Positions 45,896-61,864 of a stretch of 61,864 bases of DNA are shown here, one piece after another; positions within the stretch are counted from its first letter, which is position 1; each line of letters starts with the position of its first letter. The DNA comes from Ramlibacter sp. GTDB taxonomy: Bacteria > Pseudomonadota > Gammaproteobacteria > Burkholderiales > Burkholderiaceae_C. Below the pieces are notes generated by a model that saw nothing but the letters and a program-made list of their open reading frames with translations, made no database searches and was not told the DNA's origin. The DNA lies in assembly GCA_028292195.1 (NCBI GenBank), contig JAQGMU010000609.1, positions 1-61,864 of the forward strand, written 5' to 3'. Position numbers and translations under genes: made by a program.

Positions 45896-45942
45896 CTTGT
45901 CTCCTGGTGGTTGGTTGGTCTACGGATGCGGAAAGCCGGCAA

Positions 45943-46998
45943 TCAGCTGGAACGCTTTGTCAAGGGCCACTCGGACCAGTAGCGCTTGGTGCGGGTCCAC
46001 TGCGCCGCCAGGCCTTCCGGCTCGAAACGCAGGAAGCCCATGATCAGCAGCGCATAGATGACGGCCCGCAGTTCCTGCGCATGGGCCGCCGACAGGCCCG
46101 CGAGCGAGGCACCGGCGACCGAGAACACCAGCCGGCTCAGGTCGGGCAGGATCGTGATGAGGAAGGCGCCGAGCACCGCGCCGCGCACGCTGGCCAGGCC
46201 GCCGACGATGATCATCGCCAGCGCCTCGACGCTGGTCAGCACGCCGAAGGCGTCGATGTTCACGTAGCGGATGTGGATCGCCAGCAGCGCGCCCGCCACG
46301 CCCGTGAGGAAGGCGCTGACCGCGAAGGCCAGCAGCTTGTAGTAGACGAGGTTGATCCCCATCAGGATGGCGGCGATGTCGTAGTCGCGGATCGATGACC
46401 AGGCCCGGCCCACGCGGCTGCGCAGCAGGTTGAGCGCGCCCAGCACCGACAGCACCAGCGTGCCCAGGCACAGGTAGTACACCGCCGTCGGCGTGTCGAT
46501 CGGCAGCCCGAGCAGCGAAGTGCGCTTGACCGAGATGCCGCCGGAGCCGCCGGTCAGGCTCTCGGCCTGCAGGATGATGTTGGTGACGATGATCGAGAAC
46601 GCCAGCGTCGTCACCGCCAGGTACAGGCCCTTCAGCCGCAGCGACGGGATGCCGACCAGCGCACTGAAGGCCGCGGCCATCGCACCCGAGGCGATGATCG
46701 CCGTCGCCAGTTCCACGTTGTACTTCGAGGTGAGGATGGCCGTGGTGTACGCGCCGATGGCGAGGAAGCCGGCGTGGCCCAGCGAGATCAGCCCGGTGGT
46801 GCCGGTCACCAGGTTGAGGCCGATCGCACCGACCGCGGCGATGAAGACCAGCGTCGCGTAGGTGGCGATGTAGGTGGGCAGCAGCAGCGGCAGCGCGATC
46901 AGCGCCGCCAGCAGCACGCCGTACCAGACCCAGCCGTCGCGGTAGGGGATGAGGCGAGTCAGCTCGCCGTAGGTTTCCTGGTAGGTTGCGGTACGCAT
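45943..46998 (-). CDS. LivM-like ABC permease
   Basis: GLNLVTGTTGLISLGHAGF, RLKGLYLAVTTLAF, SRVGRAW, IIVGGL, EPEGL. Confidence 0.94.
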   Translation of the reverse strand: MRTATYQETYGELTRLIPYRDGWVWYGVLLAALIALPLLLPTYIATYATLVFIAAVGAIGLNLVTGTTGLISLGHAGFLAIGAYTTAILTSKYNVELATAIIASGAMAAAFSALVGIPSLRLKGLYLAVTTLAFSIIVTNIILQAESLTGGSGGISVKRTSLLGLPIDTPTAVYYLCLGTLVLSVLGALNLLRSRVGRAWSSIRDYDIAAILMGINLVYYKLLAFAVSAFLTGVAGALLAIHIRYVNIDAFGVLTSVEALAMIIVGGLASVRGAVLGAFLITILPDLSRLVFSVAGASLAGLSAAHAQELRAVIYALLIMGFLRFEPEGLAAQWTRTKRYWSEWPLTKRSS

Positions 46999-47870
46999 CA
47001 GACCCTCTCGATGTCTTTTTCGCCAAACAGGCCGTAGGGCCGGACCATCAGGACGACCAGGATCACCGCGAAGCCCGCGATTTCCTTGTAGCCGGTGCCG
47101 AGGTAGCCGCCGGCGAGGTTCTCGATCACGCCGATCAGCACGCCCGCGAAGCCGGCGCCGATGACGGAGTCGAGTCCGCCCATCACCGCGGCCGGGAAGG
47201 CCCGGATGCCGATGTCGCTCATCTCGATGCCGATGTTGTTGATCATGGCCAGCAGCACGCCGGCCGTGCCCGCCATCAGCGCGGACATGATCCAGGCCAG
47301 CCGGTAGATGCGGCTGGGCGCCGCCCCCATCAGCATGGCCGTGGTCGGGTCGGCGGCGGTGGCGCGCATCGCGATGCCGATCACGTTGAAGCGCAGGAAA
47401 GCCCACACCGCCACGCACATCGCGGCATAGATGACGATCAGCCAGACCTGCGCGGCCGCGAGCCGCACGCCGAGGATCTGCAGGCCGCCCGAGCCGAGGC
47501 TGACCGGGAAGCGGTGCGGATCGACGCCCCAGACCATGCCGACGATGGCGCGGATCAGCACCGCGAGCGCGATGGTGAGCATCACGATCGAGAACACCGG
47601 CTGCCCCAGCATCGGCCGGATCACCAGCCGCTCCAGCAGGTAGCCGAGCACGATCGCGGCGACGATCACGGTGGCGACGGCGGCCACCGCGCTGCCGCCG
47701 GTGTGTGTGGCTGCGGTGTAGGCCGTGTAGGCGATCAGCATCATGACCTCGCCCTGCGCGAAGTTCACCACGCGGCTCACCTTGTAGATCATGGCGAAGC
47801 CCATCGCCACCATCCCGTACAGCGCGCCGGCGGCGATGCCGGTGATGACCAGTGTCGTGAGGTATTGCAT
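46998..47870 (-). CDS. LivH-like ABC permease
   Basis: VVNFAQGE, GIAMRATA, AVMGGLDS, RPYGLFG...IERV. Confidence 0.94.
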   Translation of the reverse strand: MQYLTTLVITGIAAGALYGMVAMGFAMIYKVSRVVNFAQGEVMMLIAYTAYTAATHTGGSAVAAVATVIVAAIVLGYLLERLVIRPMLGQPVFSIVMLTIALAVLIRAIVGMVWGVDPHRFPVSLGSGGLQILGVRLAAAQVWLIVIYAAMCVAVWAFLRFNVIGIAMRATAADPTTAMLMGAAPSRIYRLAWIMSALMAGTAGVLLAMINNIGIEMSDIGIRAFPAAVMGGLDSVIGAGFAGVLIGVIENLAGGYLGTGYKEIAGFAVILVVLMVRPYGLFGEKDIERV

Positions 47871-49738
47871 CAGGCCGCCTGCCCGTAGATGGAGGAAATC
47901 TCCGTTGCGTACTTCTTCTCGATCACCGAGCGGCGCACCTTCTGGGTGGCCGTGAGCTCGCCGTCGTCGTGGTCGAGTTCCTTCTGCAGGATCACGAACT
48001 TGCGCACCCGAGCCACCTGCGCGAACCGTTCGTTGCAGCGATCCACCTCGGCCGCCACCAGCGCCCGCACCTCGGGCAGTTGCGACAGCGACCTGTAGTT
48101 GGTGTACGAGAGGTTCTGCGCCGCCGCCCAGTTGCCCACCGCGTCGGTATCGATCTGGATCAACGCCGAGACGAAGTGCCGCTGCTCGCCGATGACGATC
48201 GCCTCGCGGATGTAGACGGCTTCCTTCAGCGCGTTCTCCATCTCGGAGGGCGCGATGTTCTTGCCGCCGCTGGTGACGATGATTTCCTTCTTGCGGTCGA
48301 CGATGCGCAGCTCGCCGGCCGGCATCTGCTCGGCGATGTCGCCGCTGCGCAGCCAGCCGTCGTCACCGAGGATGTTCCGGGTTCCCTGCGCGTCGTGCAG
48401 GTAGCCGGCGAACACGGCCGGTCCGCGCAGCAGCACCTCGCCGTCCTCCGCCAGCCGGTACTCCATCCCCGGCAGCGGCGTGCCGACGCCGCCGCTCATG
48501 CGGGCATCCTTGTGCTGCGAGAACGACATGCCGCCCTCTGTGAGCCCGTAGGCCTGGTAGGTGGGAAGCCCCAGCACCTCGAAGAAGCGCAGCGTTTCCG
48601 GCGACACCGGGGCGGCGCCGCAGATGCGCACCAGCGAGCGGTCGAACCCGAGGTGCTTGGCGATGCTGCGGAACACCAGCAGCCAGAGCACGCCGTACTC
48701 GATGCGTTCCAGCCATCCCATTGGCGCCGGGGCGCCCGAGGGCTGGCGATTCGCGTCGCGCACTTTCAGGCGCCGGAAGGCGCGGTCGAACGCCCGGTCC
48801 ATCGCCCAGCGCTGCAGCCGGGGCGCCTCCTGCGAGCGCACGCGGATCGACTGCTGCATCTTCTGCCAGATGCGCGGCACGCCGAGGAACACGGTGGGGG
48901 CGATCTCGCGGATGTTGGACTGCACCGTCTCGATCGACTCGGCGAAGTTGACCACCCCGCCGGTGCTCAGGTGCATGGCCAGCGAGAACAGGCGCTCCGC
49001 CAGGTGGCACAGGGGCAGGTAGGAGAGCACTACGTAGTTGTCTTCGTGCAGCCCATGCAGCCGGGTGAACTCGTCGGCCGTGTGGCCGATGTTGCGGTGC
49101 GAGAGTTGCGCGCCCTTGGGCTTGCCGGTGGTGCCGGAGGTGTAGACGATGATCGCGACGTCGCTGGCGTCCTGCGCCTCGCAGGCGTGGACCCACTGCG
49201 CGTGCGCTTCGTCGGCGGGGCGGCCGTCGGCCAGGGCGCTGACGCGATCGAAGGGCAGCAGGCGCGGATCTTCGTAATGCCGCATGCCCTTCATGTCGAC
49301 GCAGATGATCCGCTCCAGCTCGGGCAGGCCGCCTTCCTGGCTGCTGGCGTCCAGCACCTTGTCGACCTGCTCCTGGTCGCCGCAGACGATGAAGCGCGCG
49401 TTGCAGTGGCGCACCACGTACTGCAGTTCGGGCCAGGGGCTGGTGGGGTAGACGCCGGTGGTGATGCCGCCCAGGGACTGGGCGGCCAGGTCGGCGACCA
49501 GCCATTCGGGCGTGTTGTCACCCGCGATCGCCAGCCGGTCGCCCTTGCGGAAGCCGAGCTCCAGCAGGCCCAGCGCAAAGCGCCGCACCTCGGTTTCATA
49601 CTGCTTCCAGCTCAGGCGCTTCCAGACGCCGAGCTCCTTTTCGCGCATGGCGACGCCATCCGGCTTCAGCCGCGCCCAGTGGCGCAGCCGGTTCGGCATG
49701 GTGACCATGGCGCCGGGGGGAGGACGATGCGCGCTCAT
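47870..49738 (-). CDS. Long-chain acyl-CoA synthetase-like AMP-binding protein embedded in the ABC operon
   Basis: YTSGTTGKPKG, SYLPLCH, GVPRIW, YGLTE, GWLRSGD, TSGGKNIAP, ELTATQK. Confidence 0.95.
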   Translation of the reverse strand: MSAHRPPPGAMVTMPNRLRHWARLKPDGVAMREKELGVWKRLSWKQYETEVRRFALGLLELGFRKGDRLAIAGDNTPEWLVADLAAQSLGGITTGVYPTSPWPELQYVVRHCNARFIVCGDQEQVDKVLDASSQEGGLPELERIICVDMKGMRHYEDPRLLPFDRVSALADGRPADEAHAQWVHACEAQDASDVAIIVYTSGTTGKPKGAQLSHRNIGHTADEFTRLHGLHEDNYVVLSYLPLCHLAERLFSLAMHLSTGGVVNFAESIETVQSNIREIAPTVFLGVPRIWQKMQQSIRVRSQEAPRLQRWAMDRAFDRAFRRLKVRDANRQPSGAPAPMGWLERIEYGVLWLLVFRSIAKHLGFDRSLVRICGAAPVSPETLRFFEVLGLPTYQAYGLTEGGMSFSQHKDARMSGGVGTPLPGMEYRLAEDGEVLLRGPAVFAGYLHDAQGTRNILGDDGWLRSGDIAEQMPAGELRIVDRKKEIIVTSGGKNIAPSEMENALKEAVYIREAIVIGEQRHFVSALIQIDTDAVGNWAAAQNLSYTNYRSLSQLPEVRALVAAEVDRCNERFAQVARVRKFVILQKELDHDDGELTATQKVRRSVIEKKYATEISSIYGQAA

Positions 49739-50508
49739 GCGTGGGCCGTTCCAAGGTAGGCGTTGATGACCTCGGGGTTGGCCGCCACTTCGGCCGGCGC
49801 GCCCGAGGCGATCGACTCGCCGAAATTCATCACGTGGACCGAATCGGAGATGTCCATCACGACGCTCATGTCATGCTCGATCATCAGGATGGTCATGCCG
49901 AATTCCTCGCGCAGGTCGAGCACGAAGCGGGCGATGTCCTCGGTCTCTTCCTGGTTCATGCCGGACACCATCTCGTCCAGCAGCAGCAGCTTGGGCCGGG
50001 TGGCCAGGGCACGTCCCAGCTCCACCCGCTTCTGCAGGCCGTAGGAGAGCTGGCTCACCTTGTGGTGCCGGATCTCCTCGATCTCGAGGAACTCGATGAT
50101 CTTCTCCACGTGCTCGCGGGCCGCGATTTCCTCGCGCGCCGTGCGGCCGAAGAAGAACGCGCCATCGAGCACGCCGGAGCGCAGTTGCGAATGCATGCCG
50201 ACCAGCAGGTTCATCACCACGGTTTCGTGGCGGAAGATCGCCAGGTTCTGGAAGGTGCGGCCGATGCCGAGGCCGGCCAGCCGGTGCGGCGGCTGGGCCA
50301 GCAGGTCCGTGCCTCGGTAGGCGATGGAGCCACTGCTGACGTTGAACAGGCGGCAGACCGCGTTGAACAGCGTCGTCTTGCCGGCGCCGTTGGGACCGAT
50401 CAGGCTGGCGATCTCGCCCTCGTGCACGTCGAACGAGACGTTAGCGACGGCCTTCACGCCGCCGAACGACTTGGAGACGGACTTGAGGCTGAGGAGGGGG
50501 GCGTTCAT
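49735..50508 (-). CDS. LivG-like ABC ATPase
   Basis: FGGVKAV, GPNGAGKTT, RTFQN, LSYGLQKRVE, IEHDM, VINAYLG. Confidence 0.94.
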   Translation of the reverse strand: MNAPLLSLKSVSKSFGGVKAVANVSFDVHEGEIASLIGPNGAGKTTLFNAVCRLFNVSSGSIAYRGTDLLAQPPHRLAGLGIGRTFQNLAIFRHETVVMNLLVGMHSQLRSGVLDGAFFFGRTAREEIAAREHVEKIIEFLEIEEIRHHKVSQLSYGLQKRVELGRALATRPKLLLLDEMVSGMNQEETEDIARFVLDLREEFGMTILMIEHDMSVVMDISDSVHVMNFGESIASGAPAEVAANPEVINAYLGTAHA

Positions 50509-51365
50509 GACAGCCACCGCTTGCGCTGCTTGTAGTGCTTGACGTCGCGCATCGACTTGCGTTCGGTCGACGAGCGCATGCCGAGGTAGAACTCCTGGAT
50601 GTCGCTGTTGCGCAGCAGCGCCGCCGCATCGCCGTCGAGCATCACGCGCCCACGTTCGAGCACGTAGCCGTAGTCGGCGACCTGCAGCGCCAGCCTGGCG
50701 TTCTGCTCCACCAGCAGGATGTCGATGTGCTCCTTGCGCAGCAGGGCGATGGTCTCGAAGATGCGTTCGATCACCTTGGGCGCCAGGCCCAGCGAAGGTT
50801 CGTCCAGCATCAGCAGCGAGGGCTGCACCATCAGCGCACGGGCAATGGCCACCATTTGCTGCTGCCCGCCCGACAGGTAGCCCGCGACCTGGGTGCGGCG
50901 CTCGGTGAGTTCGGGGAACAGCGTGTAGGCGCGCTCCAGTGCCGCGCGACGGGCCGGCCCGCGCAGGGTGCAGCCGCCCATGACCAGGTTCTCTTCCACC
51001 GTCAGCGCGGCGAACAGGCGCCGGCCCTCGGGCACGTGGACGACGCCGGCGCGGACGATGTCCTCCGGCGAGCTGCGCCCCAGGTCGACACCCTTGTAGC
51101 GGATGCTGCCCCGGACCAGCGAACCCTTTTCGGGAAACAGGACGCCGGAGATCGCCTTCAGCAGCGTGCTCTTGCCGGAGCCATTGGGCCCGAGCAGGCA
51201 GACCACGCGGCCGCCATCGACCTTCATCGAGATGTCGCGCACGGCTTCGACGCAGCCGTCGTAGAAGACCTGCGCGTTCAGGATCTCCAGGCCGCCCGCT
51301 GGCGGGGTCGGCGCGGAGGTGCGGGGCTGGCCCGTGGCGGGACGCATGCCGGTCTCAAGATCCAT
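50505..51365 (-). CDS. LivF-like ABC ATPase (start 51365 or 51347)
   Basis: GPNGSGKST, VPEGRR, LSGGQQQM, DEPSLGLAP, VEQNA; basic C-terminal tail KHYKQRKRWLS. Confidence 0.93.
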   Translation of the reverse strand: MDLETGMRPATGQPRTSAPTPPAGGLEILNAQVFYDGCVEAVRDISMKVDGGRVVCLLGPNGSGKSTLLKAISGVLFPEKGSLVRGSIRYKGVDLGRSSPEDIVRAGVVHVPEGRRLFAALTVEENLVMGGCTLRGPARRAALERAYTLFPELTERRTQVAGYLSGGQQQMVAIARALMVQPSLLMLDEPSLGLAPKVIERIFETIALLRKEHIDILLVEQNARLALQVADYGYVLERGRVMLDGDAAALLRNSDIQEFYLGMRSSTERKSMRDVKHYKQRKRWLS

Positions 51366-52566
51366 GGGCAGGCACCACGCGGACGACGATGTTTTCCGGG
51401 CCGCGCACCTGGCCGGAGCCCCATTTCACCGGGCCGGGTTCGCGCTCGAAGTCGGGCATGGCCTGGAGCCATTCCTCGAGTGCGACGCGCACTTCCATGC
51501 GTGCCAGGTGGGCGCCCAGGCAGCGGTGCGCGCCAGTGCCGAAGGTGAGGTGCCGGTTGCGCTTGCGCTCCAGCTGCACTTCGTTGGGCTGGTCGAACAC
51601 CGCGGGGTCGCGGTTGGCCGCCGGGTAGGCGAGGATCACGCGCTCCTGCGCGGCGATGCAGCGTCCGTGCAGTTCGACTTCTTCGCTGGTGATGCGGCCG
51701 ATGGTGAGCGGGGCGAAGACGCGCAGCAGCTCCTCCACCGCCGTGGTCTTCATCAGCTCGGGCCGGGCGACCAGCTTGGCGCGGTCGTCCGGATGTTCGG
51801 CCAGGTGGTAGATGCTGCCGTTGATGGCGTTCCAGGTGGTGTCCGCGCCGGCCAGGATGGTCAGCAGCAGGCTGCCCAGCTTGTGCTTGCGCGAGATCGG
51901 CTGGCCGGCTATCGTGGCTTGCGCGAGATGGCTCACCAGGTCGTCGCCGGGCGCGGCAGCGCGCTCGGCCAGCAGCTGGTCGAGGTCGTCGAACGCGTCC
52001 CGGAAAGCAGCGCTGCGCAGTTCCTGGTCGAAGGGCCCGAGCTTGATCACGCGGATCGCCCAGTCCATGAACCGGGCCTGGCGATCGTCCGGCACCTGCA
52101 GCAGGCGCGTGAGGATGGACAGCGCATACGGCTGCGAGAACTCGCGCGCCACGTCGCCACCGCCCTTGGCCGCCATCGCGGCGATGAGCGTGCGGGCGCG
52201 CTCGCGGGCAAAGGGCTCGATGGCGGCGATGCGCGCCGGCGTGAACCACGGCTCGAGCAGGTCACGGTGCGGTTTGTGGTCCGGCGGATCGCTGGTCAGC
52301 GGCGCGAAGAACAGGCCGCCGCCGACCTCCGGGATCGGGCCGGCGAATTCGACGGCCCGCGACGACAGCCGGGCGGAGTCGTGCGCGAGCTTGTGGATGT
52401 CCTCGTAGGCGGTGGGCAGCCACGACGAGCCCCACTTGTCGCTGTGCGCCACGGGGCAGCCGCTGCCGCGGATGTCATCCCACACCGCGTGCGGGTCGTT
52501 CACGTAGCGGTCCGAATACAGGTCGTAGCCGTCCTGCGGCTGCGTCGGGATCGGGGGCTTGTCCAT
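51355..52566 (-). CDS. Cytochrome P450
   Basis: DPPDH, I-helix AGADTT, EELLR, AANRDP, heme motif FGTGAHRCLG; SD GAGGAG. Confidence 0.97.
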   Translation of the reverse strand: MDKPPIPTQPQDGYDLYSDRYVNDPHAVWDDIRGSGCPVAHSDKWGSSWLPTAYEDIHKLAHDSARLSSRAVEFAGPIPEVGGGLFFAPLTSDPPDHKPHRDLLEPWFTPARIAAIEPFARERARTLIAAMAAKGGGDVAREFSQPYALSILTRLLQVPDDRQARFMDWAIRVIKLGPFDQELRSAAFRDAFDDLDQLLAERAAAPGDDLVSHLAQATIAGQPISRKHKLGSLLLTILAGADTTWNAINGSIYHLAEHPDDRAKLVARPELMKTTAVEELLRVFAPLTIGRITSEEVELHGRCIAAQERVILAYPAANRDPAVFDQPNEVQLERKRNRHLTFGTGAHRCLGAHLARMEVRVALEEWLQAMPDFEREPGPVKWGSGQVRGPENIVVRVVPAHGS

Positions 52567-52598
52567 TCTGTCTTGTCTCCTCGGCTGCTTGGCCGTTG

Positions 52599-53738
52599 TC
52601 AGTTCCATTCGTTGAGGACGCTGGCGGTGTCGGCGCCCAACAGGGGTGGCGCCCGCCGGATGTCATTGCCGCCTTCGGAAAAGCGCATCGGGTTGCGCAG
52701 CACGCGGATCGATCCCGCCGCGGGATGCTCCATGCGGTGCACCATCGAGTCCGCGACGACCGGATCGGCAAAGGCTTCCTCGACCTGGCGCACCGGCGCG
52801 AACACCGCTCCGGCTTCGGACAGCACCGCTTCCCAGTGCGCGTACGGCCTGGCACGCACCAGCGCCGCGATGGATTCGTCGAGGGCGACGCGATGGCGTA
52901 CGCGCGTGTCGTTGTCCGAGAAGCGGTGGTCGCCGGCCAGGGCTTCGTCGCCCAGGGCCTTCAGCAGCACGCGCCAGAACTTCTCGGTGTGCGCGATCAG
53001 CATCAGCAGGCGGCCGTCGGCGGTTTCGTAGGTGTTGTACGGCGCCATCTGGTAGTGGCCGTTGCCCAGGCGCGGCGGCGGTGAACCGGTCGCGAAGAAG
53101 TAGGCCTCGCGCGGCGTCATGGCGAAGATGGTCGCGTCCAGCATGGAGACGTCGACCCGCTGGCCGCGGCCGTGGTCGCGCCGGGCATGCAGGGCGGCCA
53201 GCACGCCGATGGTGGCAAACAGCGGCGGCACGACGTCGCCCAGCGGAAAGCCGGTCTTCAGCGGACCGCTCTGGGCGGTGCCGGTCAATTGCATGATGCC
53301 GGACATCGCCTGCACCGTCGGGTCTAGCGCGGGCCTGTCGCCGTAGGGAGCGTCCTTGCCGAAGCCGGAGATCGCGGTGTAGATGAGGCCCGGGTTGTCA
53401 CTGGCCAGCGCTTCGTAGCCCAGCCCCCATTTCTCCATGGTGCCCGGGCGGAAGTTCTCCACCACGACGTCGCAGCCGACGATGAGCGCGCGCAGCGCCT
53501 CGACGTCGCGCGGCTGCTTCATGTCCAGCACCACGCTGCGCTTGTTGCGGTTCAGCGCCAGGAACACGTCGCTCTCGCCGCCGATGCGAGTGACGCCCAC
53601 GTGGCGCCCCGCTTCACCCTCGGGCGGCTCGATCTTGATCACGTCGGCGCCAAGGTCGCCCAGCAGCAGGGTGCACAGCGGCCCCGCGACCAGCTGGGTG
53701 AGGTCGATCACGCGGATGTCCTTGAGCAGGTTGGTCAT
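52599..53738 (-). CDS. CaiB/BaiF (family III) CoA transferase
   Basis: VIDLTQLVAGP, DLGADVIKIEPP, NRNKRS, VENFRPG, PLGD, PPLLGADT. Confidence 0.95.
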   Translation of the reverse strand: MTNLLKDIRVIDLTQLVAGPLCTLLLGDLGADVIKIEPPEGEAGRHVGVTRIGGESDVFLALNRNKRSVVLDMKQPRDVEALRALIVGCDVVVENFRPGTMEKWGLGYEALASDNPGLIYTAISGFGKDAPYGDRPALDPTVQAMSGIMQLTGTAQSGPLKTGFPLGDVVPPLFATIGVLAALHARRDHGRGQRVDVSMLDATIFAMTPREAYFFATGSPPPRLGNGHYQMAPYNTYETADGRLLMLIAHTEKFWRVLLKALGDEALAGDHRFSDNDTRVRHRVALDESIAALVRARPYAHWEAVLSEAGAVFAPVRQVEEAFADPVVADSMVHRMEHPAAGSIRVLRNPMRFSEGGNDIRRAPPLLGADTASVLNEWN

Positions 53739-53750
53739 GCCGGCTTTCTT

Positions 53751-54914
53751 CTAGTAGGTCTCGACATGGAAACGTCCCTGCTGCCGCATGGCTTCGCGCT
53801 GCGGCGCCCAGCCGCCGCCGCAACCGCGCAGGATGTCTTCGAAGGCTTCTTCCACGCCGGCTTCCATGCCCTTGCGGCCGCAGATGAAGACGTGGGTGGT
53901 GGGCGCCAGCAGCAGCAGCTGCAGGCGGTCGGCGCTCACCCGCATCCGGTCCTGCACGTACACGCGCGGCAAGCCCGGCTCCCGGGAGAAGCAGATGTGG
54001 TGGTCGAGGAAGCCGGCGGGCAGGCTCTCATGCCGCCCGTAGTAAGGCAGTTCCTCCGGCGTGCGGCCGCCATAGAACATCATCAGCGCGCCACTGGCGT
54101 CGCGCATGGCGCGCAGGCGCTGTTCGATGAAGCCGCGGAACGGGGCGACGCCGGTGCCGGTGCATACCATCAGCAGGTTGGCCTCGGGGTCCTGCGGCAG
54201 CAGGAAGGTGGTGCCGAAGGGCCCTGTCACCTGCACCCGGTCACCGGCCTTGAGGTCGGCGAGATGGTTGGAGCACAGCCCGGACGGCTCCCGCTTGACG
54301 GTGAGGGCGACGGTGTTGGTGCCGTTCTCTTCGCCGCCGCGGGCGCTGGCCACCGAGTAGAGGCGCTCCACGTTCGGGCGCCCGCGCTCGTCGACGCCGG
54401 GTGGCAGGATGCCGATGCTCTGGCCTTCCAGCAGCGGCATGCGCTGGCCGCCGAAGTCGAGCACGATGTGGCGCACGTCGTGCAGGTGGGTGCGGGTCGC
54501 GCGGCGGTTGGAGAGCACCGTGGCCGTGGCGGGCGTGGTTCGGCCGTACAGCTGCACGGTTGGCGTGGCGGCCGTGGGCGGGGCGATCGGGCCGGGCAGC
54601 GCGGCGGGCATCCCGGCGGCCGGCACGGCCTGCGGTGGCAGGTCGAGCCAGCCGAACTGCGCCTGGAGGCTGTAGGGCCGGGCCACCGCGTGCCAGCGGT
54701 CCACCGCGCCGGTGGGGCAGGGTGCGACGCAGGCCTTGCAGTGGTTGCAGGTGTCGGCGTTGACCACGTAGTTGTTGTCGTCGTGGGTGATGGCGCCGAC
54801 CGGGCAGGTTTCCTCGCAGGTGTTGCAGCGGATGCAGATCTCGGGATCGATCAGGTGCTGCACCACGAACGCCGGCTCCCCGGGCGCTGCGGCGAGGAAC
54901 GCCGGGTCGCTCAT
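53751..54914 (-). CDS. boxA: BoxA-like 2[4Fe-4S] + FNR-type NADPH reductase
   Basis: QHLIDPEICIRCNTCEETCP, CNHCKACVAPCPTGA; FNR motifs EGQSIGILPPG, RLYSVAS, CTGTGVAPFRGF, YVQD, ICG, C-terminal HVETY; ATGA overlap with ADH. Confidence 0.9.
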   Translation of the reverse strand: MSDPAFLAAAPGEPAFVVQHLIDPEICIRCNTCEETCPVGAITHDDNNYVVNADTCNHCKACVAPCPTGAVDRWHAVARPYSLQAQFGWLDLPPQAVPAAGMPAALPGPIAPPTAATPTVQLYGRTTPATATVLSNRRATRTHLHDVRHIVLDFGGQRMPLLEGQSIGILPPGVDERGRPNVERLYSVASARGGEENGTNTVALTVKREPSGLCSNHLADLKAGDRVQVTGPFGTTFLLPQDPEANLLMVCTGTGVAPFRGFIEQRLRAMRDASGALMMFYGGRTPEELPYYGRHESLPAGFLDHHICFSREPGLPRVYVQDRMRVSADRLQLLLLAPTTHVFICGRKGMEAGVEEAFEDILRGCGGGWAPQREAMRQQGRFHVETY

Positions 54915-56020
54915 TGCAGCACCAGAGCTCGCGCGCCCTGTTCGGCCGCGCAGTAGGCGATGGCGTCGTTGATGCGATCGAGCGGGAAGCGCGCCGTCAC
55001 CAGTTCCTTCAGGTGCAGCTGGCCGGACTGGTACAGCTCGACCAGCCGGGCCAGGTCGCGCTTGACGTGGGCCGAGCCGTAGAGCGAGCCGCGGATGGTT
55101 TTCTCGGACATCACCAGGCCGCCGAACGCCGGGATGTTGACCATCACCTCCTTGCCCGGGGCGCTGACGATCACCACCCGGCCGCCGCGCCGCGTCATGC
55201 GGATGGCGTCGTCGATGGTCTGCTGCCGGCCCGCCACTTCGAGGGCGACGTCGACGCCCCGGCCGGAGGTCAGCTCGCGGATCTGGGAAACCATGTTCCT
55301 GGCCGGTTCCAGCGTGTGCGTGGCGCCGAGTTGCCTGGCCAGCGCCAGGCGGTCCGGCCGCGGGTCGATGGCGATGATGGTGGTGGCGCCGCTGATGCGC
55401 GCGCCCTGGATCGCATTGAGGCCGACGCCGCCGCAGCCGACCACGGCGACCGCTTCGCCGACGGCCACTTGCGCGGTGTTCACCGCGGCGCCGACGCCGG
55501 TGATCACGCCGCAGCCCAGCAAGGCGGCTTCCTCGAACGGCAGGTCGGCCGGGATCCGCACGGCGCAACCGGCCGGCACGACCACGCGTTCGGCAAAGGT
55601 GCCCAGGCCCGTCATGTGGAACACGGGCTGGCCCTTCCAGCTGAAGCGCGTGGTGCCGTCGGCCATGGTGCCGCGCAGCATCGAGGCCTGGCCCGATTCG
55701 CACAGCACCGGTTGGTTGTGGGAGCAATAAAAGCAGCTGCCGCACTGGGCCAGCAGGCTCAGCACCACGCGGTCACCGACGGCCAGGTCCCTGACGTTGG
55801 GGCCGATCGCCACCACCGTGCCGGCGCTTTCATGCCCGAGCACCACCGGCAGCGGGCTGGGCAGCACGGCCTGGTGGACCGACAGGTCCGAATGGCAGAC
55901 GCCCGTGGCGGCGATTTCCACCATCACTTCGTCGGCGTGCGGCTCCTCGAGATCCAGCAGTTCGACCTGGAGGGGTTCGCGGGGCCGCACCATCAGGGCG
56001 GCCTTGGTCTGGAAGGTCAT
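54911..56020 (-). CDS. Zn-dependent alcohol dehydrogenase (MDR)
   Basis: GVCHSD, LGHESAG, CGSCFYC...C structural Zn site, LLGCGVITG, GCGGVG. Confidence 0.96.
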   Translation of the reverse strand: MTFQTKAALMVRPREPLQVELLDLEEPHADEVMVEIAATGVCHSDLSVHQAVLPSPLPVVLGHESAGTVVAIGPNVRDLAVGDRVVLSLLAQCGSCFYCSHNQPVLCESGQASMLRGTMADGTTRFSWKGQPVFHMTGLGTFAERVVVPAGCAVRIPADLPFEEAALLGCGVITGVGAAVNTAQVAVGEAVAVVGCGGVGLNAIQGARISGATTIIAIDPRPDRLALARQLGATHTLEPARNMVSQIRELTSGRGVDVALEVAGRQQTIDDAIRMTRRGGRVVIVSAPGKEVMVNIPAFGGLVMSEKTIRGSLYGSAHVKRDLARLVELYQSGQLHLKELVTARFPLDRINDAIAYCAAEQGARALVLQ

Positions 56021-56063
56021 AACTACAATTTACGGTTGATGCTGGTAAAAAGTGTAGTACAGT
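56021..56063. promoter_or_regulatory. Overlapping divergent promoters with an ACTACA-N25-TGTAGT inverted repeat
   Basis: AT-rich gap. Minus strand: TAAATT 6 nt before the ADH ATG, no SD. Plus strand: TTGATG-N16-TACAGT. Repeat arms at 56022-56027 and 56053-56058. Confidence 0.55.
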
Positions 56064-56097
56064 CTCGCGGCCGATGCAACTGTGGATGGAGTCGGGA

Positions 56098-56292
56098 ATG
56101 AAGATCCGGATCGCGCTGGAACGCTGCAAGGGGCACCAGGCCTGTGTCAGGTCGGCGCCTGAGCTTTTCTTCATTGGCGAAGACGGCTTCGCCCGGCTCC
56201 GCGCCGGCGAGGACGTGGCGCCGGAACAGGCCGAGAACGCGCTCCTCGCATACGACAATTGCCCGGAATTCGCGATCGAAATCGTCCCCTAG
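56098..56292 (+). CDS. Small monocluster ferredoxin with a CxxHxxC...CP motif (P450-associated type)
   Basis: MKIRIALERCKGHQACVRSAPELF...DNCPEFAI; SD GGAG. Confidence 0.92.
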   Translation: MKIRIALERCKGHQACVRSAPELFFIGEDGFARLRAGEDVAPEQAENALLAYDNCPEFAIEIVP

Positions 56293-56340
56293 GGGAAACC
56301 CAGGGGCAACGAAAATATGTTGATGATTCGGGAAAACGAT

Positions 56341-57834
56341 ATGTCCGAAACTGAATCCCTGCCGGCCGGAATCCGCTGGCTGCGCGGCCCCGGTGCCAAG
56401 CGCCTGCTGATCAACGGCCAATGGGTCGAAGCCCTGCAGGGCGAAACCTTCGAAAGCCGCGACCCCGCCACCGGCGAGCTGCTGTGCTCCATCGCCAGGG
56501 GCGGTGCGGCCGATGTCGACCTGGCCGTGGCAGCCGCGCGCCGCGCACTCGACGGCCCCTGGGGCAAGCTCAAGCCCTACGACCGTCAGCTGCTGCTGCT
56601 GAAGCTGGCCGACCTGGTCGAGCGCCACTACGACGAACTGGCCGTGATCGAAACGCTCGATATGGGCGCGCCGATTTCGCGCACCTCGGTTGGCCATCGC
56701 CGCGTGCTGCCGCTGATCCGCTTCTATGCCGGCCTGGCCACGGCGATCCACGGCCAGACCATCGCCAACTCGATTCCCGGCGAGATGCTGACGTACACCA
56801 CCAAGGAGCCGGTGGGCGTGGTCGGCGCCATCGTTCCGTGGAACGCCCCGCTGGGACTCGGCATCTGGAAGCTGGCGCCGGCGCTGGCCACCGGCTGCAC
56901 CGTGGTCATGAAGCCGGCCGAGCAGGCCTCGCTGTCGCTGCTGCGGCTGGCGGAACTGGTCCAGGAGGCGGGCTTTCCTGCCGGCGTGCTGAACGTGGTG
57001 ACCGGCTTCGGCGAAGCGGGTGCGGCCATTGCCGCCCATCCCGGTGTCGACAAGGTGTCGTTCACCGGCTCCACCGAGACCGGCCAGAGCATCATTCGCG
57101 CCTCGGCCGGCAACATCAAGCGGCTGTCGCTGGAACTGGGCGGGAAGTCGCCCGACATCGTGTTCGCCGACGCCGACCTCGATGCGGCCGCCGCCGGCGC
57201 CGCCTTCGCCGGCTTCGAGAACACCGGCCAGATCTGCGTCGCCGGCACCCGGCTCTACGTGGAGCGCGGCGTGCACGAGGAGTTCGTGGAGAAGGTCGCC
57301 GCCCGCGCTGCCAGGGTGCGCATAGGCGCCACCCTGGACCCGAAGACCTCGATGGGCCCGCTGGTGTCCGCCGAGCAGCTGGAACGGGTGCTCGGCTACA
57401 TGGAGCTCGGCCCGCGCGAGGGCGCGCGCACGGCGGCGGGCGCCCGCAGGCTGACCGGCGAGGGCTTCGACAGCGGCTTCTATGTGGCGCCCACGGTCTT
57501 CGCCGACGTGAACGACACGATGCGGATCGCCCGCGAGGAAATCTTCGGGCCGGTGATCAGCGCCATGCCCTTCGACGATGTCGAGGAGGTGATCCGCCGC
57601 GCCAACGACAGTCCTTACGGCCTGGGCGCCGGGGTCTGGACGCGCGACGTCGGCAAGGCCCACCGGATGGCGCGCGCGCTGAAGGCCGGGACGGTCTGGG
57701 TCAACTGCTACATGCCGCTGGATCCGGCGCTGCCCTTCGGCGGCTACAAGATGAGTGGTTACGGGCGCGAGTCCGGCATCCATCACATGGACGAATTCAT
57801 GAATGTGAAGGCCGTCGTCCTGAAGACAGGTTGA
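56341..57834 (+). CDS. NAD(P)-dependent aldehyde dehydrogenase
   Basis: IVPWNAP, KPAEQ, FTGSTETG, LELGGKSP, catalytic Cys in GQICVAG, EEIFGPV, PFGGYKMSG.GRE. Confidence 0.96.
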   Translation: MSETESLPAGIRWLRGPGAKRLLINGQWVEALQGETFESRDPATGELLCSIARGGAADVDLAVAAARRALDGPWGKLKPYDRQLLLLKLADLVERHYDELAVIETLDMGAPISRTSVGHRRVLPLIRFYAGLATAIHGQTIANSIPGEMLTYTTKEPVGVVGAIVPWNAPLGLGIWKLAPALATGCTVVMKPAEQASLSLLRLAELVQEAGFPAGVLNVVTGFGEAGAAIAAHPGVDKVSFTGSTETGQSIIRASAGNIKRLSLELGGKSPDIVFADADLDAAAAGAAFAGFENTGQICVAGTRLYVERGVHEEFVEKVAARAARVRIGATLDPKTSMGPLVSAEQLERVLGYMELGPREGARTAAGARRLTGEGFDSGFYVAPTVFADVNDTMRIAREEIFGPVISAMPFDDVEEVIRRANDSPYGLGAGVWTRDVGKAHRMARALKAGTVWVNCYMPLDPALPFGGYKMSGYGRESGIHHMDEFMNVKAVVLKTG

Positions 57835-57889
57835 TGCGCTTCGGGCAGGTACCATCGACCGCAAGCGCGCGATCCAGCGGCAACCCTCC

Positions 57890-58756
57890 ATGAGTACAAC
57901 GGCCAAGAAGAAGACCCGGTCCGACGACGGCAACGGCAACGGCAATGGCGGCGCCGCCAGTGCGCGCCGCATCCTGATCACCGTGCTGGGCGAGTTCCTG
58001 CGCAACGGGCCGCACCAGGTGTGGAACTCCACGCTGGTGGAGGTGCTGAAGATCGCCGGCCAGAGCGAGCAGGCGGCGCGCCAGGCGGTGCTGCGCGCCG
58101 CCGCGGCGGGCTGGCTGGAGAAAAGCAGCGTCGGCCGCCGGGTCTGCTGGAACCTCACGCCTTCGCTGCTGACCTTCCTCGTCGAAGGCTGGAACCACGT
58201 CTATCCGGCGAACCGCTCCGGTTGGGATGGCCAGTGGCTGATCCTGTATGTATCGCTGCCGGAGAAGCAGCGCGCCGCCCGCGACAAGCTGTACAAGTCG
58301 CTGCAGTGGGCCGGCTTCGGCAACCCGAGCGCGGGGCTCTGGATCAGCCCCTACACCGAACGCCGCGACGAGGTGAAGCGCATCATCCGCGCGCTGGGCC
58401 TGACCGAGTTCACCTTCAGCTTCATCGGGCAGGCGCTCGACATCGGCATCAACGACCAGCGGCTGGTGCAGCTTTGCTGGAACTGGGACGAGATCGCCCG
58501 TCACTACGCGCAGCTGCTGGATCGCTTCCGCAAGGTGAAGCCGCGCACGCGCGACGAGATCCTGGTCGCCCACCTGCAGCTGCTGATCGAGTGGAGCAAG
58601 CTGCCGCTGATCGACCCCCGCCTGCCCAGCGCCTTGCTGCCGGCCGACTGGGAAGGCCAGCATTCCGCGGCGGAACTCGAGGACATGCTCAGCGAGTGGC
58701 GGCGCGTGGCCACCGCGCGCTGGGACGAGGTCGTGGCGCAGGCGGAGCAGGGGTGA
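57890..58756 (+). CDS. PaaX-family transcriptional regulator
   Basis: SARRILITVLGEF, E.AARQAVLR...GWL, WDGQWL, LQWAGFG....GLWISP, DPRLPSALLPADWEG. Confidence 0.92.
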   Translation: MSTTAKKKTRSDDGNGNGNGGAASARRILITVLGEFLRNGPHQVWNSTLVEVLKIAGQSEQAARQAVLRAAAAGWLEKSSVGRRVCWNLTPSLLTFLVEGWNHVYPANRSGWDGQWLILYVSLPEKQRAARDKLYKSLQWAGFGNPSAGLWISPYTERRDEVKRIIRALGLTEFTFSFIGQALDIGINDQRLVQLCWNWDEIARHYAQLLDRFRKVKPRTRDEILVAHLQLLIEWSKLPLIDPRLPSALLPADWEGQHSAAELEDMLSEWRRVATARWDEVVAQAEQG

Positions 58757-58802: not shown

Positions 58803-58831
58803 GTAACCCTTGCATGGTATTCTGTTCAGCC

Positions 58832-59488
58832 ATGAGTAGCTCTGCCCTCCGCGTTGCGCCCAAGGCGCCGGTCCGGACGCCCGCCACCAAGCGGACCAAG
58901 CGCGAGCAGCGCGACGAAAGTGTCGACAAGCTGCTCAGCGCGGCACGGACGCTGTTCGTTTCCAAAGGCTACCGTTCGACCACGCTGGAGCAGATCGCGG
59001 CGGCGGCGGGGCTGACCAAGGGCGCCGTCTACTTCCACTTCGGCGCCAAGGAAGCGGTGCTGGTGCAGCTGCTCGATCACGTCGAGAACCAGCTCATTGC
59101 GCCCGCGCTGGACATCCTCAAGGCCGAGGGCAGCCCGGTCTCCGACAAGCTGGTGCAGTTCCTGCGCCTGCATGGCGAGATGGGGATCACCAAGCGCGAA
59201 GACATGCTGCTGCTGATCTCCATGTCCGTGGAGTTCGCCGAGCTCGAGGGCCCGGCAGCCGAAGCGATCAAGCGCATGTATGGGCTTCTGTACCACGCGC
59301 TCGAAGCGCTGATCCGCCGCGGCCAGGCCAGCGGCGAGATCCGGCGCGACGCGCCGGCCGCGGAGCTGGCCTCCGTGGTGGTCGCCACGCACGACGGCGC
59401 CTTCCTCGAGTGGTACCGGCGCGGTACGCAACTCGATGGCCGCGACCTCGTTCGCGCGACCCTCTCCGTCCTGCTGCACGGGCTGTAA
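58832..59488 (+). CDS. TetR/AcrR-family transcriptional regulator (start 58814 or 58832)
   Basis: LLSAARTLFVSKGYRSTTLEQIAAAAGLTKGAVYFHF..KE. Confidence 0.95.
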   Translation: MSSSALRVAPKAPVRTPATKRTKREQRDESVDKLLSAARTLFVSKGYRSTTLEQIAAAAGLTKGAVYFHFGAKEAVLVQLLDHVENQLIAPALDILKAEGSPVSDKLVQFLRLHGEMGITKREDMLLLISMSVEFAELEGPAAEAIKRMYGLLYHALEALIRRGQASGEIRRDAPAAELASVVVATHDGAFLEWYRRGTQLDGRDLVRATLSVLLHGL

Positions 59489-59523
59489 AGCGCCCGCGAA
59501 TCCCGGTCTTCGGGTTCCCCGCG

Positions 59524-59552
59524 TTGACAACATACCGGCCAGCTAGTATTTT
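59524..59552 (+). promoter_or_regulatory. Sigma70 promoter with candidate TetR operator, copy 3
   Basis: TTGACA-N17-TATTTT, with ATAC-CGGCCAGCTA-GTAT (59532-59549) spanning the spacer and -10 box. Confidence 0.75.
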
Positions 59553-59593
59553 CATGAAAACCCCGACCAACGCCGTCAACGGAGCCACACCTC

Positions 59594-60388
59594 ATGGATC
59601 TTCAACTCGCTAGCAAGAGCGTCATCGTCACGGGCTCCGGCTCGAACATCGGCCGCGCCATCGCGCTCGCCTTCGCCCGTGAAGGCGCCAAGGTCGCCAT
59701 CGTCGACATCGACGCAGCCCAGTGCAACAAGGTCGCCGCCGAAGCGCGCGCGCTCGGTGCCGCCGAAGTGCTGGCGCTGGCCACCGACGTCACCAGCTGG
59801 GAGGACGTGCAGAAGATGGCGCAAGGCGTCGAGGCCGGCTTCGGCGGCATCGACGTGCTGGTGAACAACGTGGGCTGGACCTTCGACCGCATGTTCATGG
59901 AGAAGCCGCGCGAAGAGTGGGAAAAGGAAATCCAGCTGAACCTGTGGTCCAACATCAACTGCACCCGCGCGGTGATGGACACGATGGTGAAGGCCGGCAA
60001 GGGCACGGTCGTCAACATCGGCTCCGACGCCGGCCGCATGGGCGAATTCCGCGAAGCCGTGTACGGCGCCACCAAGGCCGGCGTGATCGCGCTGTCGAAG
60101 TCGCTGGCCCGCGAGTACGGCCGCAAGGGCCTGCGCTTCAACACCGTCTGCCCCGGCACCACCATGCCCGATTCCGACGAGGAGATCGGCGAGCGCAGCA
60201 TCTGGGCCACCGGCATGAAGGACTGGAACACCCCCGAGATGCGCGAGCGCATCGCCAAGGCCTATCCGCTGCGCCGCGTGGGCCGTCCGGACGACGTCTC
60301 GAACGCCGTGCTGTTCATGGCCTCCGACTGCGCGTCATTCATCACCGGCCAGACGCTCAGCGTGAGCGGCGGCTACACGATGATGTAA
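59594..60388 (+). CDS. SDR, BadH-like hydroxyacyl-CoA dehydrogenase
   Basis: TGSGSNIG, VNNVGW, SDAGRMGEFREAVYGATK, NTVCPG, ITGQTLSVSGG. Confidence 0.9.
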   Translation: MDLQLASKSVIVTGSGSNIGRAIALAFAREGAKVAIVDIDAAQCNKVAAEARALGAAEVLALATDVTSWEDVQKMAQGVEAGFGGIDVLVNNVGWTFDRMFMEKPREEWEKEIQLNLWSNINCTRAVMDTMVKAGKGTVVNIGSDAGRMGEFREAVYGATKAGVIALSKSLAREYGRKGLRFNTVCPGTTMPDSDEEIGERSIWATGMKDWNTPEMRERIAKAYPLRRVGRPDDVSNAVLFMASDCASFITGQTLSVSGGYTMM

Positions 60389-60398
60389 GGACCGCGGC

Positions 60399-61175
60399 AT
60401 GACGCATCTCGAGATCGCGGACGGCATCGCCCGCCTCACCCTGGCAAGCCCGCCGGTGAACGCGCTGTCGGCGCAATTGCTGGATTCCCTGGAACAGGCG
60501 CTGGAATCGCTGGAGCATCGCGACGACTGGTCGGTGCTGGTGCTGGCCAGCACCGCCAGCGTGTTCTGCGCCGGCGGCGACCTGCAGACCATGGCCGGCT
60601 GGATGAAGGGCGAAGATCCGGGCGGCGTGCTCGGCGCCTATGCGGCGCGCGTGCAGCGCGTCGGCCGCCGGATCGAGGCGCTGCCGCAAGTCACGATTGC
60701 CCTGTGCGAGCGCACCGCGTTGGGCGGCGGACTCGAGCTCGCGCTGGCCTGCGACCTGCGCATCGCCTCGAGCCGGGCCAGGTTCGGCCTGCCGGAAGTG
60801 CGGCTCGGGCTGTTGCCCGGCGCCGGCGGCACGCAGCGCCTGACGCGCGCGTGCGGCAAGGGCGTCGCGATGCGCCTGATCCTCGGCGCCGAGGTGGTCG
60901 ATGCCGCCACGGCACTCGACCTCGGCATCGTCCAATGGCTGTTCGAAGCCGACCAGTTCGCCGCCCGCAGCGAAGAAGTGGTGGCCCGATTCGCCGCGGC
61001 GCCGCGCGAGGCGCTGCTGCACAGCAAGGCCTGCATCCAGCTCGCGCAGGAGCCGCAGGCCGGCTTCACGCGCGAGGTCGAAGGCCTTTCCGCCCTGGCG
61101 CGCACCGAGACGGCACGCACGCTGGTCGACGCCTTCCTGGCCGGGGCGCGCGCCAGCGCGGCCAGGAAGCCGTGA
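60399..61175 (+). CDS. Enoyl-CoA hydratase
   Basis: PPVNAL, FCAGGD, GGGLELALACD, FGLPEVRLG...GGTQRL. Confidence 0.93.
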   Translation: MTHLEIADGIARLTLASPPVNALSAQLLDSLEQALESLEHRDDWSVLVLASTASVFCAGGDLQTMAGWMKGEDPGGVLGAYAARVQRVGRRIEALPQVTIALCERTALGGGLELALACDLRIASSRARFGLPEVRLGLLPGAGGTQRLTRACGKGVAMRLILGAEVVDAATALDLGIVQWLFEADQFAARSEEVVARFAAAPREALLHSKACIQLAQEPQAGFTREVEGLSALARTETARTLVDAFLAGARASAARKP

Positions 61176-61864
61176 ACCTCGACTATTCCCCCGAGGAAGC
61201 CGCCTTCCGCGGCGAGGTGAGGCAATTCCTCGAGAGCAACGTCGACCCCAGGGTACGCGCCAAGCTGCGCGCCGGCGGCGAACTCGAGAAGCATGAGGTA
61301 GTGGACTGGATCCGCATCCTGCACCGGCGGGGCTGGGCGGTGCCGCATTGGCCCGAGCAATGGGGCGGCACCGGCTGGACCCTGGTGCAGCAGATGATCT
61401 ACCGCGACCTGGTGCAGGAAGTGGGGGTGCCGGAGGCGCCGTCCTTCGGCGTCAGCATGGTCGGCCCGGTGATCTACAACTTCGGCAGCGAGGCGCAGAA
61501 GCGCCGCTTCCTGCCCCGCATCGCCAGCCTGGAGCACTGGTGGTGCCAGGGCTTCTCCGAGCCCGGCGCCGGGTCCGACCTCGCCGCCCTGCGCACGGCG
61601 GCGCGCCGCGATGGCTCCGGCGACTGGATCCTCTCCGGCCAGAAGACGTGGACCACGCTGGCGCAGCACGCCGACTGGATCTTCGTGCTGGCGCGCACCG
61701 ACCCCGACGCCCCACGCAAGCAGCAAGGCATCTCGTTCTTCCTAGTCGACATGCGGTCCCCCGGCGTCACGCAGCGGCCTCTGCGCACCATCGACGGCGG
61801 CCACGAGATCAACGAAGTGTTCTTCCACGACGTGAAGGTGCCCGCCGACCAGCTGGTGGGCGAG
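61172..61864 (+). CDS. Acyl-CoA dehydrogenase, PimC-like; runs off the right edge
   Basis: GTG overlapping the previous TGA; MNLDYSPEEAAFRGEVRQFL, FGVSMVGPVI, WWCQGFSEPGAGSDLA, GQKTWTTLAQHADW, HEINEVFF. Confidence 0.93.
   Translation, partial: MNLDYSPEEAAFRGEVRQFLESNVDPRVRAKLRAGGELEKHEVVDWIRILHRRGWAVPHWPEQWGGTGWTLVQQMIYRDLVQEVGVPEAPSFGVSMVGPVIYNFGSEAQKRRFLPRIASLEHWWCQGFSEPGAGSDLAALRTAARRDGSGDWILSGQKTWTTLAQHADWIFVLARTDPDAPRKQQGISFFLVDMRSPGVTQRPLRTIDGGHEINEVFFHDVKVPADQLVGE

Follow-up and report, generated by a model that had tools for sequence, protein, structure and literature searches.

Known systems and the Ramlibacter locus

To our knowledge, the native redox partners of most bacterial cytochromes P450 are unknown. 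Several described systems come close to the one treated here. BoxA is an NADPH/FAD/2[4Fe-4S] reductase that acts transiently on BoxB (PMC4498308). GcoAB consists of CYP255A and a three-domain reductase, and its authors called it a new P450 class (PMC6021390). His-motif (CXXHXXC) ferredoxins encoded beside P450 genes are well described (PMC6237146), and systems with CXX?XXC ferredoxins include FdR1/Fdx3/CYP147G1 of M. marinum (PMC6237146) as well as FprA/Fdx/CYP51B1 and FdxE/CYP143 (bioRxiv 2022.11.02.514812). The present analysis concerns a 61,864-nucleotide stretch of DNA from Ramlibacter sp. (contig JAQGMU010000609.1 of assembly GCA_028292195.1; the whole stretch is hereafter the window) in which a BoxA-like reductase, a His-motif ferredoxin and a P450 of subfamily CYP194C are encoded together. 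The BoxA-like protein is probably the dedicated reductase of this P450, with a predicted transfer of electrons from NADPH through FAD, 2[4Fe-4S] and the ferredoxin to the heme.

The reductase shares with BoxA, as modeled by TIGR03224, the fusion of a 2[4Fe-4S] domain to an FAD/NADPH-type ferredoxin-NADP+ reductase (FNR). In contrast to BoxA, it belongs to a separate clade with a shorter linker that falls mostly under the model's cut-off (the window protein and 8 of 9 members scanned), that was never found beside boxB and that stands beside CYP194C wherever a partner is traceable. The likeness to GcoAB lies in pairing a P450 with a ferredoxin-FNR fusion of a type otherwise belonging to a non-heme-iron oxygenase (BenC), whereas GcoB carries a single [2Fe-2S] cluster, uses NADH by preference and works without an extra ferredoxin (PMC6021390). 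The window reductase instead combines two [4Fe-4S] motifs with an FNR of plastid type that bears NADPH motifs, and the His-ferredoxin is encoded separately; the window thus has no GcoAB-type arrangement of N-terminal [2Fe-2S] cluster, NADH and absent ferredoxin. As in three-component class I-like systems, the reductase, ferredoxin and P450 genes are clustered, both in the window and in all four reductase-bearing loci read as DNA; the reductase, however, is not of the putidaredoxin-reductase type without Fe-S but of the FNR family with two Fe-S motifs. The CXX?XXC systems likewise combine a P450 with a ferredoxin that has one cluster and no second Cys, their reductase gene being sometimes co-located and often absent, but they involve a different P450 family and different hosts. 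The FdR1 and FprA reductases are not known to be BoxA-family 2[4Fe-4S]-FNR fusions.

The first-pass annotation of this DNA knew of no described BoxA-P450 pairing, and no BoxA-family reductase with a P450 was found in the open-access literature searched. A BoxA-family reductase wired to a P450 would be an undescribed type of P450 electron supply.

The BoxA-like reductase and its clade

The N-terminal 2x[4Fe-4S] domain of the reductase carries two CxxCxxCxxxC motifs (C27/30/33/37 and C56/59/62/66), and its plant-type FNR part carries RxYS (184-187), GxxS (212-215), GTG (253-255), SR (310-311), YVQD (319-322), CG (345-346) and a terminal ETY. These Fe-S and FNR motifs, whose functional roles are presumed here, are conserved across the alignment of the clade. 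Among solved structures, FNRs of cyanobacteria and plants come nearest; an AlphaFold model made from a 10-sequence alignment reached a pLDDT of 53.7 and was unusable.

The protein had been labeled BoxA in the first-pass annotation. Its architecture, a 2[4Fe-4S] domain fused to an FAD/NADPH FNR, agrees with that name, but its TIGR03224 score of 458.5 lies just below the cut-off of 459.2, so the label is softened here to BoxA-like. Eight of the nine clade members scanned scored 419-457 and one (P0124) 511, compared with 586-598 for all four non-clade proteins and 688-730 bits for canonical BoxA of congeners. Identity between the window reductase and boxB-adjacent proteins reaches 59%. The boxB neighborhood typical of BoxA is lacking, both in the window and in the 20-38 kb read around each of the four related DNA loci.

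From 195 BoxA-family proteins extracted, 61 remained after thinning and were placed in a tree. A clade of 13 rows contains all five P450-adjacent proteins and no boxB-adjacent protein (branch 0.54, SH-aLRT 100). When the tree was rooted with FNR-only proteins or distant relatives as outgroup (52 and 32 rows), this clade, itself supported at 100/100, was sister to all boxB-adjacent BoxA (100/100 and 99/99 for the careful tree); an approximately unbiased (AU) test did not reject its nesting with three alphaproteobacterial BoxA (p 0.196). The earlier view of a BoxA re-tasked to a P450 is thus unproven on the best trees and stands as one option. The linker between the Fe-S and FNR parts spans 97-113 residues in the clade and 110-144 (median 118) in boxB-adjacent proteins, where it was measurable in 144 of 156, and at 12 diagnostic columns the clade departs from a residue that 90% or more of the boxB-adjacent proteins share. 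Outside both BoxA and the P450-linked clade lie the deep-branching 2[4Fe-4S]-FNR fusions P0289 and P0292-P0302. Sedimenticola loci (L061, L066, L067, L074) hold a further BoxA-family clade whose genes lack a boxB in the surrounding 8 kb and gave no P450 match.

Recurrence of the reductase beside CYP194C

The first-pass annotation had suggested looking for a boxB-less BoxA clade that recurs beside P450s, and would have given up the pairing if the P450 neighborhood were conserved nowhere else. Such a clade does recur, with one P450 subfamily and with the same His-ferredoxin and alcohol dehydrogenase (ADH), and the pairing is present in the genomes of several other soil bacteria, C. necator H16 among them. 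The best matches of both the window reductase and the window P450 in protein searches adjoin each other on the Cupriavidus sp. KK10 plasmid NZ_CP073678.1, which together with genomes G772, G852 and G853 provides the four reductase-bearing loci read as DNA. Within one genus, the P450 and the reductase clade occur in the same three of 78 genomes (G772, G852, G853). Each of these three holds two further boxA copies, both boxB-adjacent, and the third copy is therefore, judged by gene neighborhood, surplus to BoxB.

All eight other 90%-identity clusters of the reductase clade have a partner P450 from one CYP194C subclade, two by DNA, two by neighboring accessions and four via equal-sized contigs only. 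Neighboring reductase/P450 accessions are CAJ96526/CAJ96525 (C. necator ATCC 17699; CAJ96525 is H16_B1743), QUN32385/QUN32384, KWR75129/KWR75130, XYJ91327/XYJ91326, MDP3135119/MDP3135118 and MFM0347838/MFM0347836. Reductase and P450 records share contig sizes of 55043, 52631, 19438, 8209 and 26334, and ferredoxin homologs lie on contigs sized 14509 and 19438, as do reductase/P450 records. All ten partner P450s fall into a single clade (support 100) whose branching matches the reductase tree, and pairwise identities of the two proteins are correlated over 10 pairs (Spearman 0.91, Mantel p 0.0004; P0122 substituted for its partial cluster-mate). The matching trees show long co-inheritance.

This recurrence emerged from protein searches, in which both genes have a small top tier, and not from pattern scans. 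In the scan of genome contigs boxB was present in 73 of the 80 loci kept and a P450 in none, the clade being missed; among the 80 matches listed for metagenome contigs, boxB was present in 70 and a distant P450 (28%) in one, behind a canonical boxCBA. The P450 was unmatched in 400 genomes of its own family and 117 of its own genus, and the reductase clade in 400 genomes of the order and 201 of the genus of G443. The distribution of the module is rare and patchy.

Organization of the locus

The source genome (G000) is an assembly of 5.5 Mb in 692 contigs that is 82% complete. The gene order given in the first-pass annotation was recovered in full from open reading frame (ORF) coordinates and from Pfam and TIGRFAM profiles:

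44744-51365, minus strand: ABC transporter genes (branched-chain type) with an acyl-CoA ligase at 47870-49738 (Pfam)
51355-52566, minus strand: cytochrome P450 CYP194C (PF00067); the ORF reaches an ATG at 52608
52599-53738, minus strand: CoA-transferase family III (PF02515)
53751-54914, minus strand: BoxA-like reductase, 387 aa (Pfam Fer4, FAD_binding_6, NAD_binding_1)
54911-56020, minus strand: Zn-dependent ADH (Pfam ADH_N/ADH_zinc_N)
56022-56058, no strand: candidate operator ACTACA-N25-TGTAGT, within the 77-bp divergent intergenic region
56098-56292, plus strand: single-cluster ferredoxin, 64 aa, ATG at 56098 (Pfam Fer4_15/Fer4_13)
56317-57834, plus strand: aldehyde dehydrogenase (ALDH; PF00171)
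57890-58756, plus strand: PaaX-family repressor, not PaaX proper (Pfam PaaX, PaaX_M, PaaX_C)

The ADH stop and the start of the reductase gene share 4 nt, and 12 nt separate the reductase and CoA-transferase genes. Translation of the P450 probably starts at 52566, the Met at which its homologs begin, with GAGGAG upstream. Downstream of it, ABC ATPases, the acyl-CoA ligase and a permease continue the operon with overlaps of 1-13 nt. Contigs of run X1, which is probably the source sample and hence no independent confirmation, span the junctions P450-CoA-transferase, CoA-transferase-reductase, reductase-ADH and ADH-ferredoxin-ALDH.

The order in the window differs from the Cupriavidus type. On NZ_CP073678.1 it runs ADH (73%), reductase (60%), P450 (68%), two crotonases, CoA-transferase, ferredoxin (69%), crotonase, LysR, CoA ligase and ALDH, and G772, G852 and G853 share this order; the four genes for ADH, reductase, P450 and ferredoxin are still grouped in both arrangements. 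ADH orthologs are 72-73% identical to the window copy in the four reductase-bearing loci and 62-63% in eight loci without the reductase. An ALDH is present in all 12 of these loci, yet at merely 36-41% identity (non-orthologous), and CoA-transferase homologs reach only 27-45%, so that orthology is not established. The ABC transporter and acyl-CoA ligase block is local to the window, no counterpart having been found in any of the 12 related loci.

The first-pass annotation also held that the window has no boxB, boxC or paaABCDE, nor a putidaredoxin-reductase-type gene near the P450, and this was upheld. A tblastn search with the genome's own partial BoxB and BoxC returned one weak crotonase match in the window, and paaA was unmatched throughout the 82%-complete genome. 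The sole other flavoreductase match in the window, a Pyr_redox_2/NDH2-like gene about 43 kb from the P450, scored 39 bits on the HcaD ferredoxin-reductase model (cut-off 450).

Beyond the ABC genes, a class II aldolase, a TauD-family dioxygenase, an SCP2-type thiolase with a ChsH2 OB-fold partner and a CoA ligase (39708-44652, minus strand) may be part of the same catabolic island. Downstream of the PaaX-like gene lie a TetR regulator, a BadH-like SDR, a crotonase and an acyl-CoA dehydrogenase (58814-61864), with a promoter-like site of these genes at 59524-59552. Elsewhere in the genome, contig C46 has four P450-like genes inside about 11 kb.

The P450, its ferredoxin and loci without the reductase

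Members of a P450 subfamily share more than 55% identity. With 69% identity to P0264 (H16_B1743, CYP194C2) and 61% to P0008 (CYP194C1), and with its heme Cys363, AGADTT (I-helix) and EELLR (ExxR) motifs intact, the window P450 belongs to the same subfamily as these two. The names follow the supplement of PMC9148083, in which H16_B1743 of C. necator H16 is CYP194C2 and OI25_5065 of P. fungorum is CYP194C1. An AlphaFold model (pLDDT 84.2) has the P450 fold, and a fold search with it returned P450cin and P450cam at 26-29% identity, giving no close relative and no clue to the substrate. In the open-access literature found to mention CYP194, CYP194C1 and CYP194C2 are only named and neither a substrate nor a redox partner turned up, and no open-access literature naming H16_B1743 was found. 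R. palustris CYP194A presumably lies beside the His-ferredoxin of PDB 4ID8/4OV1.

The ferredoxin motif C-K-G-H-Q-A-C...CP conforms to CxxHxxC(x)nCP, and with 64 residues (60-70 being typical) and a P450 gene nearby the protein is a His-motif P450 ferredoxin, for which a [3Fe-4S] cluster is predicted. Its best PDB match is the R. palustris His-ferredoxin 4id8/4ov1, termed a [3Fe-4S] protein (bioRxiv 2022.11.02.514812), followed by the CYP51-ferredoxin and FdxE-CYP143 fusions. Orthologs occur in all 12 related P450 loci fetched, at 63-69% identity to the window copy in reductase-bearing loci versus 41-47% in reductase-less ones. Since the ferredoxin is kept even where the reductase is missing, it would have joined the P450 first, with the reductase being optional or acquired later. 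The ferredoxin is thus likely the immediate donor of the P450, with the BoxA-like protein as the ferredoxin reductase of one subclade.

Eight CYP194C1-type genomes (G443, G813, G583, G883, G1026, G942, G899, G900) have no BoxA-like gene at the locus. Their order is P450-ADH-ALDH-ferredoxin; CoA ligases, a pair of PaaX-like genes and genes for a thioesterase, a porin and an MFS transporter lie divergently from this set. Within about 9 kb of the P450, seven of the eight loci gave no reductase match and one has a convergent Pyr_redox_2 gene; in the seven of these genomes searched for the reductase, only boxB-adjacent boxA is present. P0024 is a self-sufficient form of the CYP194 family, a 722-aa P450 fused to a phthalate-dioxygenase-reductase-type domain (NAD_binding_1 and Fer2; [2Fe-2S]/NAD). 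The fusion of P0024 to a different reductase, together with the reductase-less loci, indicates that the core of the system is the P450, ADH and His-ferredoxin and that the reductase slot is exchangeable.

Proposed electron chain and pathway

Electrons would pass from NADPH to FAD and on to the two [4Fe-4S] clusters within the BoxA-like reductase, in that presumed direction and order, and from there to the His-motif ferredoxin, the putative immediate donor of the CYP194C heme. To judge from its neighbors, the P450 would hydroxylate a methyl or other C-H group to an alcohol. ADH and then ALDH would oxidize this to an acid, and the acid would be converted to a CoA ester and enter beta-oxidation-type enzymes. 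Such a route from C-H through alcohol, aldehyde, acid and CoA ester to beta-oxidation is suggested by ADH orthologs in 12 of 12 loci, an ALDH in all of them, and CoA ligases, CoA-transferases and crotonases. As a guess from the neighboring genes, the substrate could be an alkyl-substituted aromatic, alicyclic or terpenoid compound. In this genome the PaaX-family repressor would bind ACTACA-N25-TGTAGT and be released by an acyl-CoA of the pathway.

Regulator and candidate operator

The regulator scores 137 bits on TIGR02277 against a cut-off of 264.55, and PaaX-like homologs (42-46%) occur twice per locus in eight CYP194C loci. It shares with E. coli PaaX all three PaaX Pfam domains, and the candidate operator in its divergent promoter resembles the E. 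coli one in being a 6-bp inverted repeat with a wide spacer (PMC9493321). It differs in reaching half the equivalog cut-off, in its half-site and 25-bp spacer, the E. coli operator being TGATTC-N27-GAATCA (PMC9493321), and in the lack of any paaA found in the 82%-complete genome to which a PaaX could be linked. Of the regulation claimed in the first-pass annotation, control by a PaaX-family protein is likely, a PaaX-family gene being accompanied by a candidate operator in the divergent promoter, but it does not belong to the reductase module; sensing of phenylacetyl-CoA gains no support, the protein being no PaaX equivalog, the candidate operator different and paaA not found. Four Cupriavidus-type loci have the reductase and no PaaX-like gene, while eight loci have PaaX-like genes and no reductase, which places PaaX-like control outside the reductase module.

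The repeat ACTACA-N25-TGTAGT was first spotted by eye in the intergenic region and then counted. CTACA-N25-TGTAG has its only exact match at that spacing in the 5.5-Mb assembly here. With at most one mismatch it occurs in three copies in each of the eight PaaX-like-bearing loci (24 in total), compared with 0-5 matches there for the other spacers between 18 and 32; the four loci without PaaX-like genes have one intragenic match with one mismatch. As the eight loci are close kin, this evidence amounts to about two independent lineages plus the window. Control of the locus by the PaaX-family protein through the candidate operator is likely on these grounds. A relative's contig in run X3 has nine listed intergenic substitutions, none in the operator half-sites, and these are too few and too shallow to count. 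A sigma-70 scan found no promoter in the 77-bp region. In the CYP194C1 clusters (L204, L212, L213, L224-L228) the two PaaX-like paralogs and three repeats would form a small regulon with the thioesterase, porin and MFS transporter.

Alternative roles of the reductase

The search for a canonical boxABC elsewhere in the genome, as the first-pass annotation had advised, found boxB and boxC on separate contigs, but canonical boxA only as a frameshifted remnant. boxB stands at the start of C106 with no boxA behind it, the next gene being unrelated and convergent, and boxR-boxC stands at the end of C65. The remnant on C366 (L099:9850-10621) is 64-87% identical in pieces to the BoxA of congeners and 34% to the window protein; it is of betaproteobacterial type and lies near IS fragments and a SIR2-like ORF. 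The window protein might accordingly be an orphan BoxA serving this distant BoxB, its P450 neighborhood being incidental, and only minor amounts of BoxA are needed (PMC4498308). That the protein should be the genome's only boxA and serve a distant boxB had been named beforehand as fatal to the P450 reading; the first half holds for the intact genes found, but the boxB concerned is of a mostly boxA-less type. Among 24 congeners, 20 have boxB and five have boxA, and 15 of the 20 boxB-positive genomes, eight of them 99-100% complete, have no boxA match at E<=1e-30, so that being the only intact boxA weighs little. In four of the five boxA-bearing congeners, boxA lies beside a second, higher-scoring boxB, and the boxB of this genome is 86-88% identical to the boxA-less type. 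The box cluster of the genus (L100, G000:C65:25349-30340; L098, L205-L207) has SBP-benzoate CoA ligase-flavodoxin divergent from boxR-boxC-boxB and no boxA. Its flavodoxin is present in G000 and in three of three relatives read (79-88% conserved), had no match in the 80 loci that bear boxA, and may supply this BoxB type with electrons. With the boxB copies of G772, G852 and G853 each having their own boxA and the clade never seen beside boxB, service to the distant BoxB is very unlikely as the protein's role, although it may moonlight on BoxB.

A different possibility is a two-component system in which the 2[4Fe-4S] domain of the reductase docks directly on the P450, leaving the ferredoxin as a leftover or as an entry point for housekeeping reductases. 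Wherever the order is known, at most one gene lies between those for the reductase and the P450, the ferredoxin being further away or divergent, and the shorter Fe-S-to-FNR linker and 12 diagnostic substitutions of the clade count in its favor. There are precedents: BoxA reduces BoxB, no ferredoxin being named (PMC4498308), and GcoB, itself a ferredoxin-FNR fusion, reduces its P450 alone (PMC6021390). However, the ferredoxin is intact in the window and in all four reductase-bearing DNA loci, and its higher identity there (63-69% vs 41-47%) shows that it has co-diverged with the module, which makes a two-component system unlikely. Rather improbable, too, is that the reductase has some other job in the cassette (ferredoxin:NADP+ redox balancing, acyl-CoA-stimulated NADPH oxidation or reduction of an unseen acceptor) while housekeeping reductases feed the P450 through the ferredoxin. 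Eight loci do run the P450/ADH/ferredoxin set without it, genes of the Pyr_redox_2 and FNR families are numerous in the genome, and physical linkage would account for the co-divergence. Yet the loci read have no other Fe-S-dependent acceptor in common, the reductase has been retained at 55-60% divergence despite rearranged gene order, and its stop and start overlap or nearly abut the ADH and P450 genes. The neighboring TauD and flavin monooxygenase require no such reductase, and no other reductase matches were found in the four DNA loci or near the window P450.

Several observations weigh against the BoxA-like protein as dedicated P450 reductase. The four DNA loci are close kin, and four of the eight cluster pairings come from equal-sized contigs alone; co-inheritance on a mobile cassette by itself gives the same trees and co-occurrence, with or without direct contact. 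The eight loci in which P450, ADH and ferredoxin persist although the reductase is missing indicate that the CYP194C subfamily does not require it, and next to a reductase with its own 2[4Fe-4S] domain a separate ferredoxin seems redundant. P0124, a member of the clade, exceeds the BoxA cut-off of 459.2, and the sister position of the clade leaves re-tasking as one option and a shared older reductase as the other. No intact boxA-family gene besides that of the window was found in the genome, where a boxB without adjacent boxA exists, and the regulator, by its profile score, is not PaaX proper.

Significance

That the locus represents a new class of P450 electron supply, judged as GcoAB once was, with a CYP194C-specific 2[4Fe-4S]-FAD-NADPH reductase that is the sister of BoxA, has co-evolved with its P450, supplies a heme enzyme in place of a diiron one, is not replaceable by BoxA and does not serve BoxB, is a tentative claim with the chances slightly against it. 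The locus nonetheless offers a complete candidate set of reductase, ferredoxin, P450 and downstream dehydrogenase, and the module is present in the genetically tractable C. necator H16. The unstudied CYP194C subfamily is set in the context of a pathway, with a candidate operator through which its inducer might be sought, and some genes annotated as 'benzoyl-CoA oxygenase component A' are no marker of the box pathway. Where BoxA and the BoxA-like protein occur in one cell, the pair is a natural test of how reductases choose between a diiron and a heme partner. If the claim is true, BoxA would belong, as a single branch, to a broader family of oxygenase reductases that includes the deep branches P0289 and P0292-P0302.

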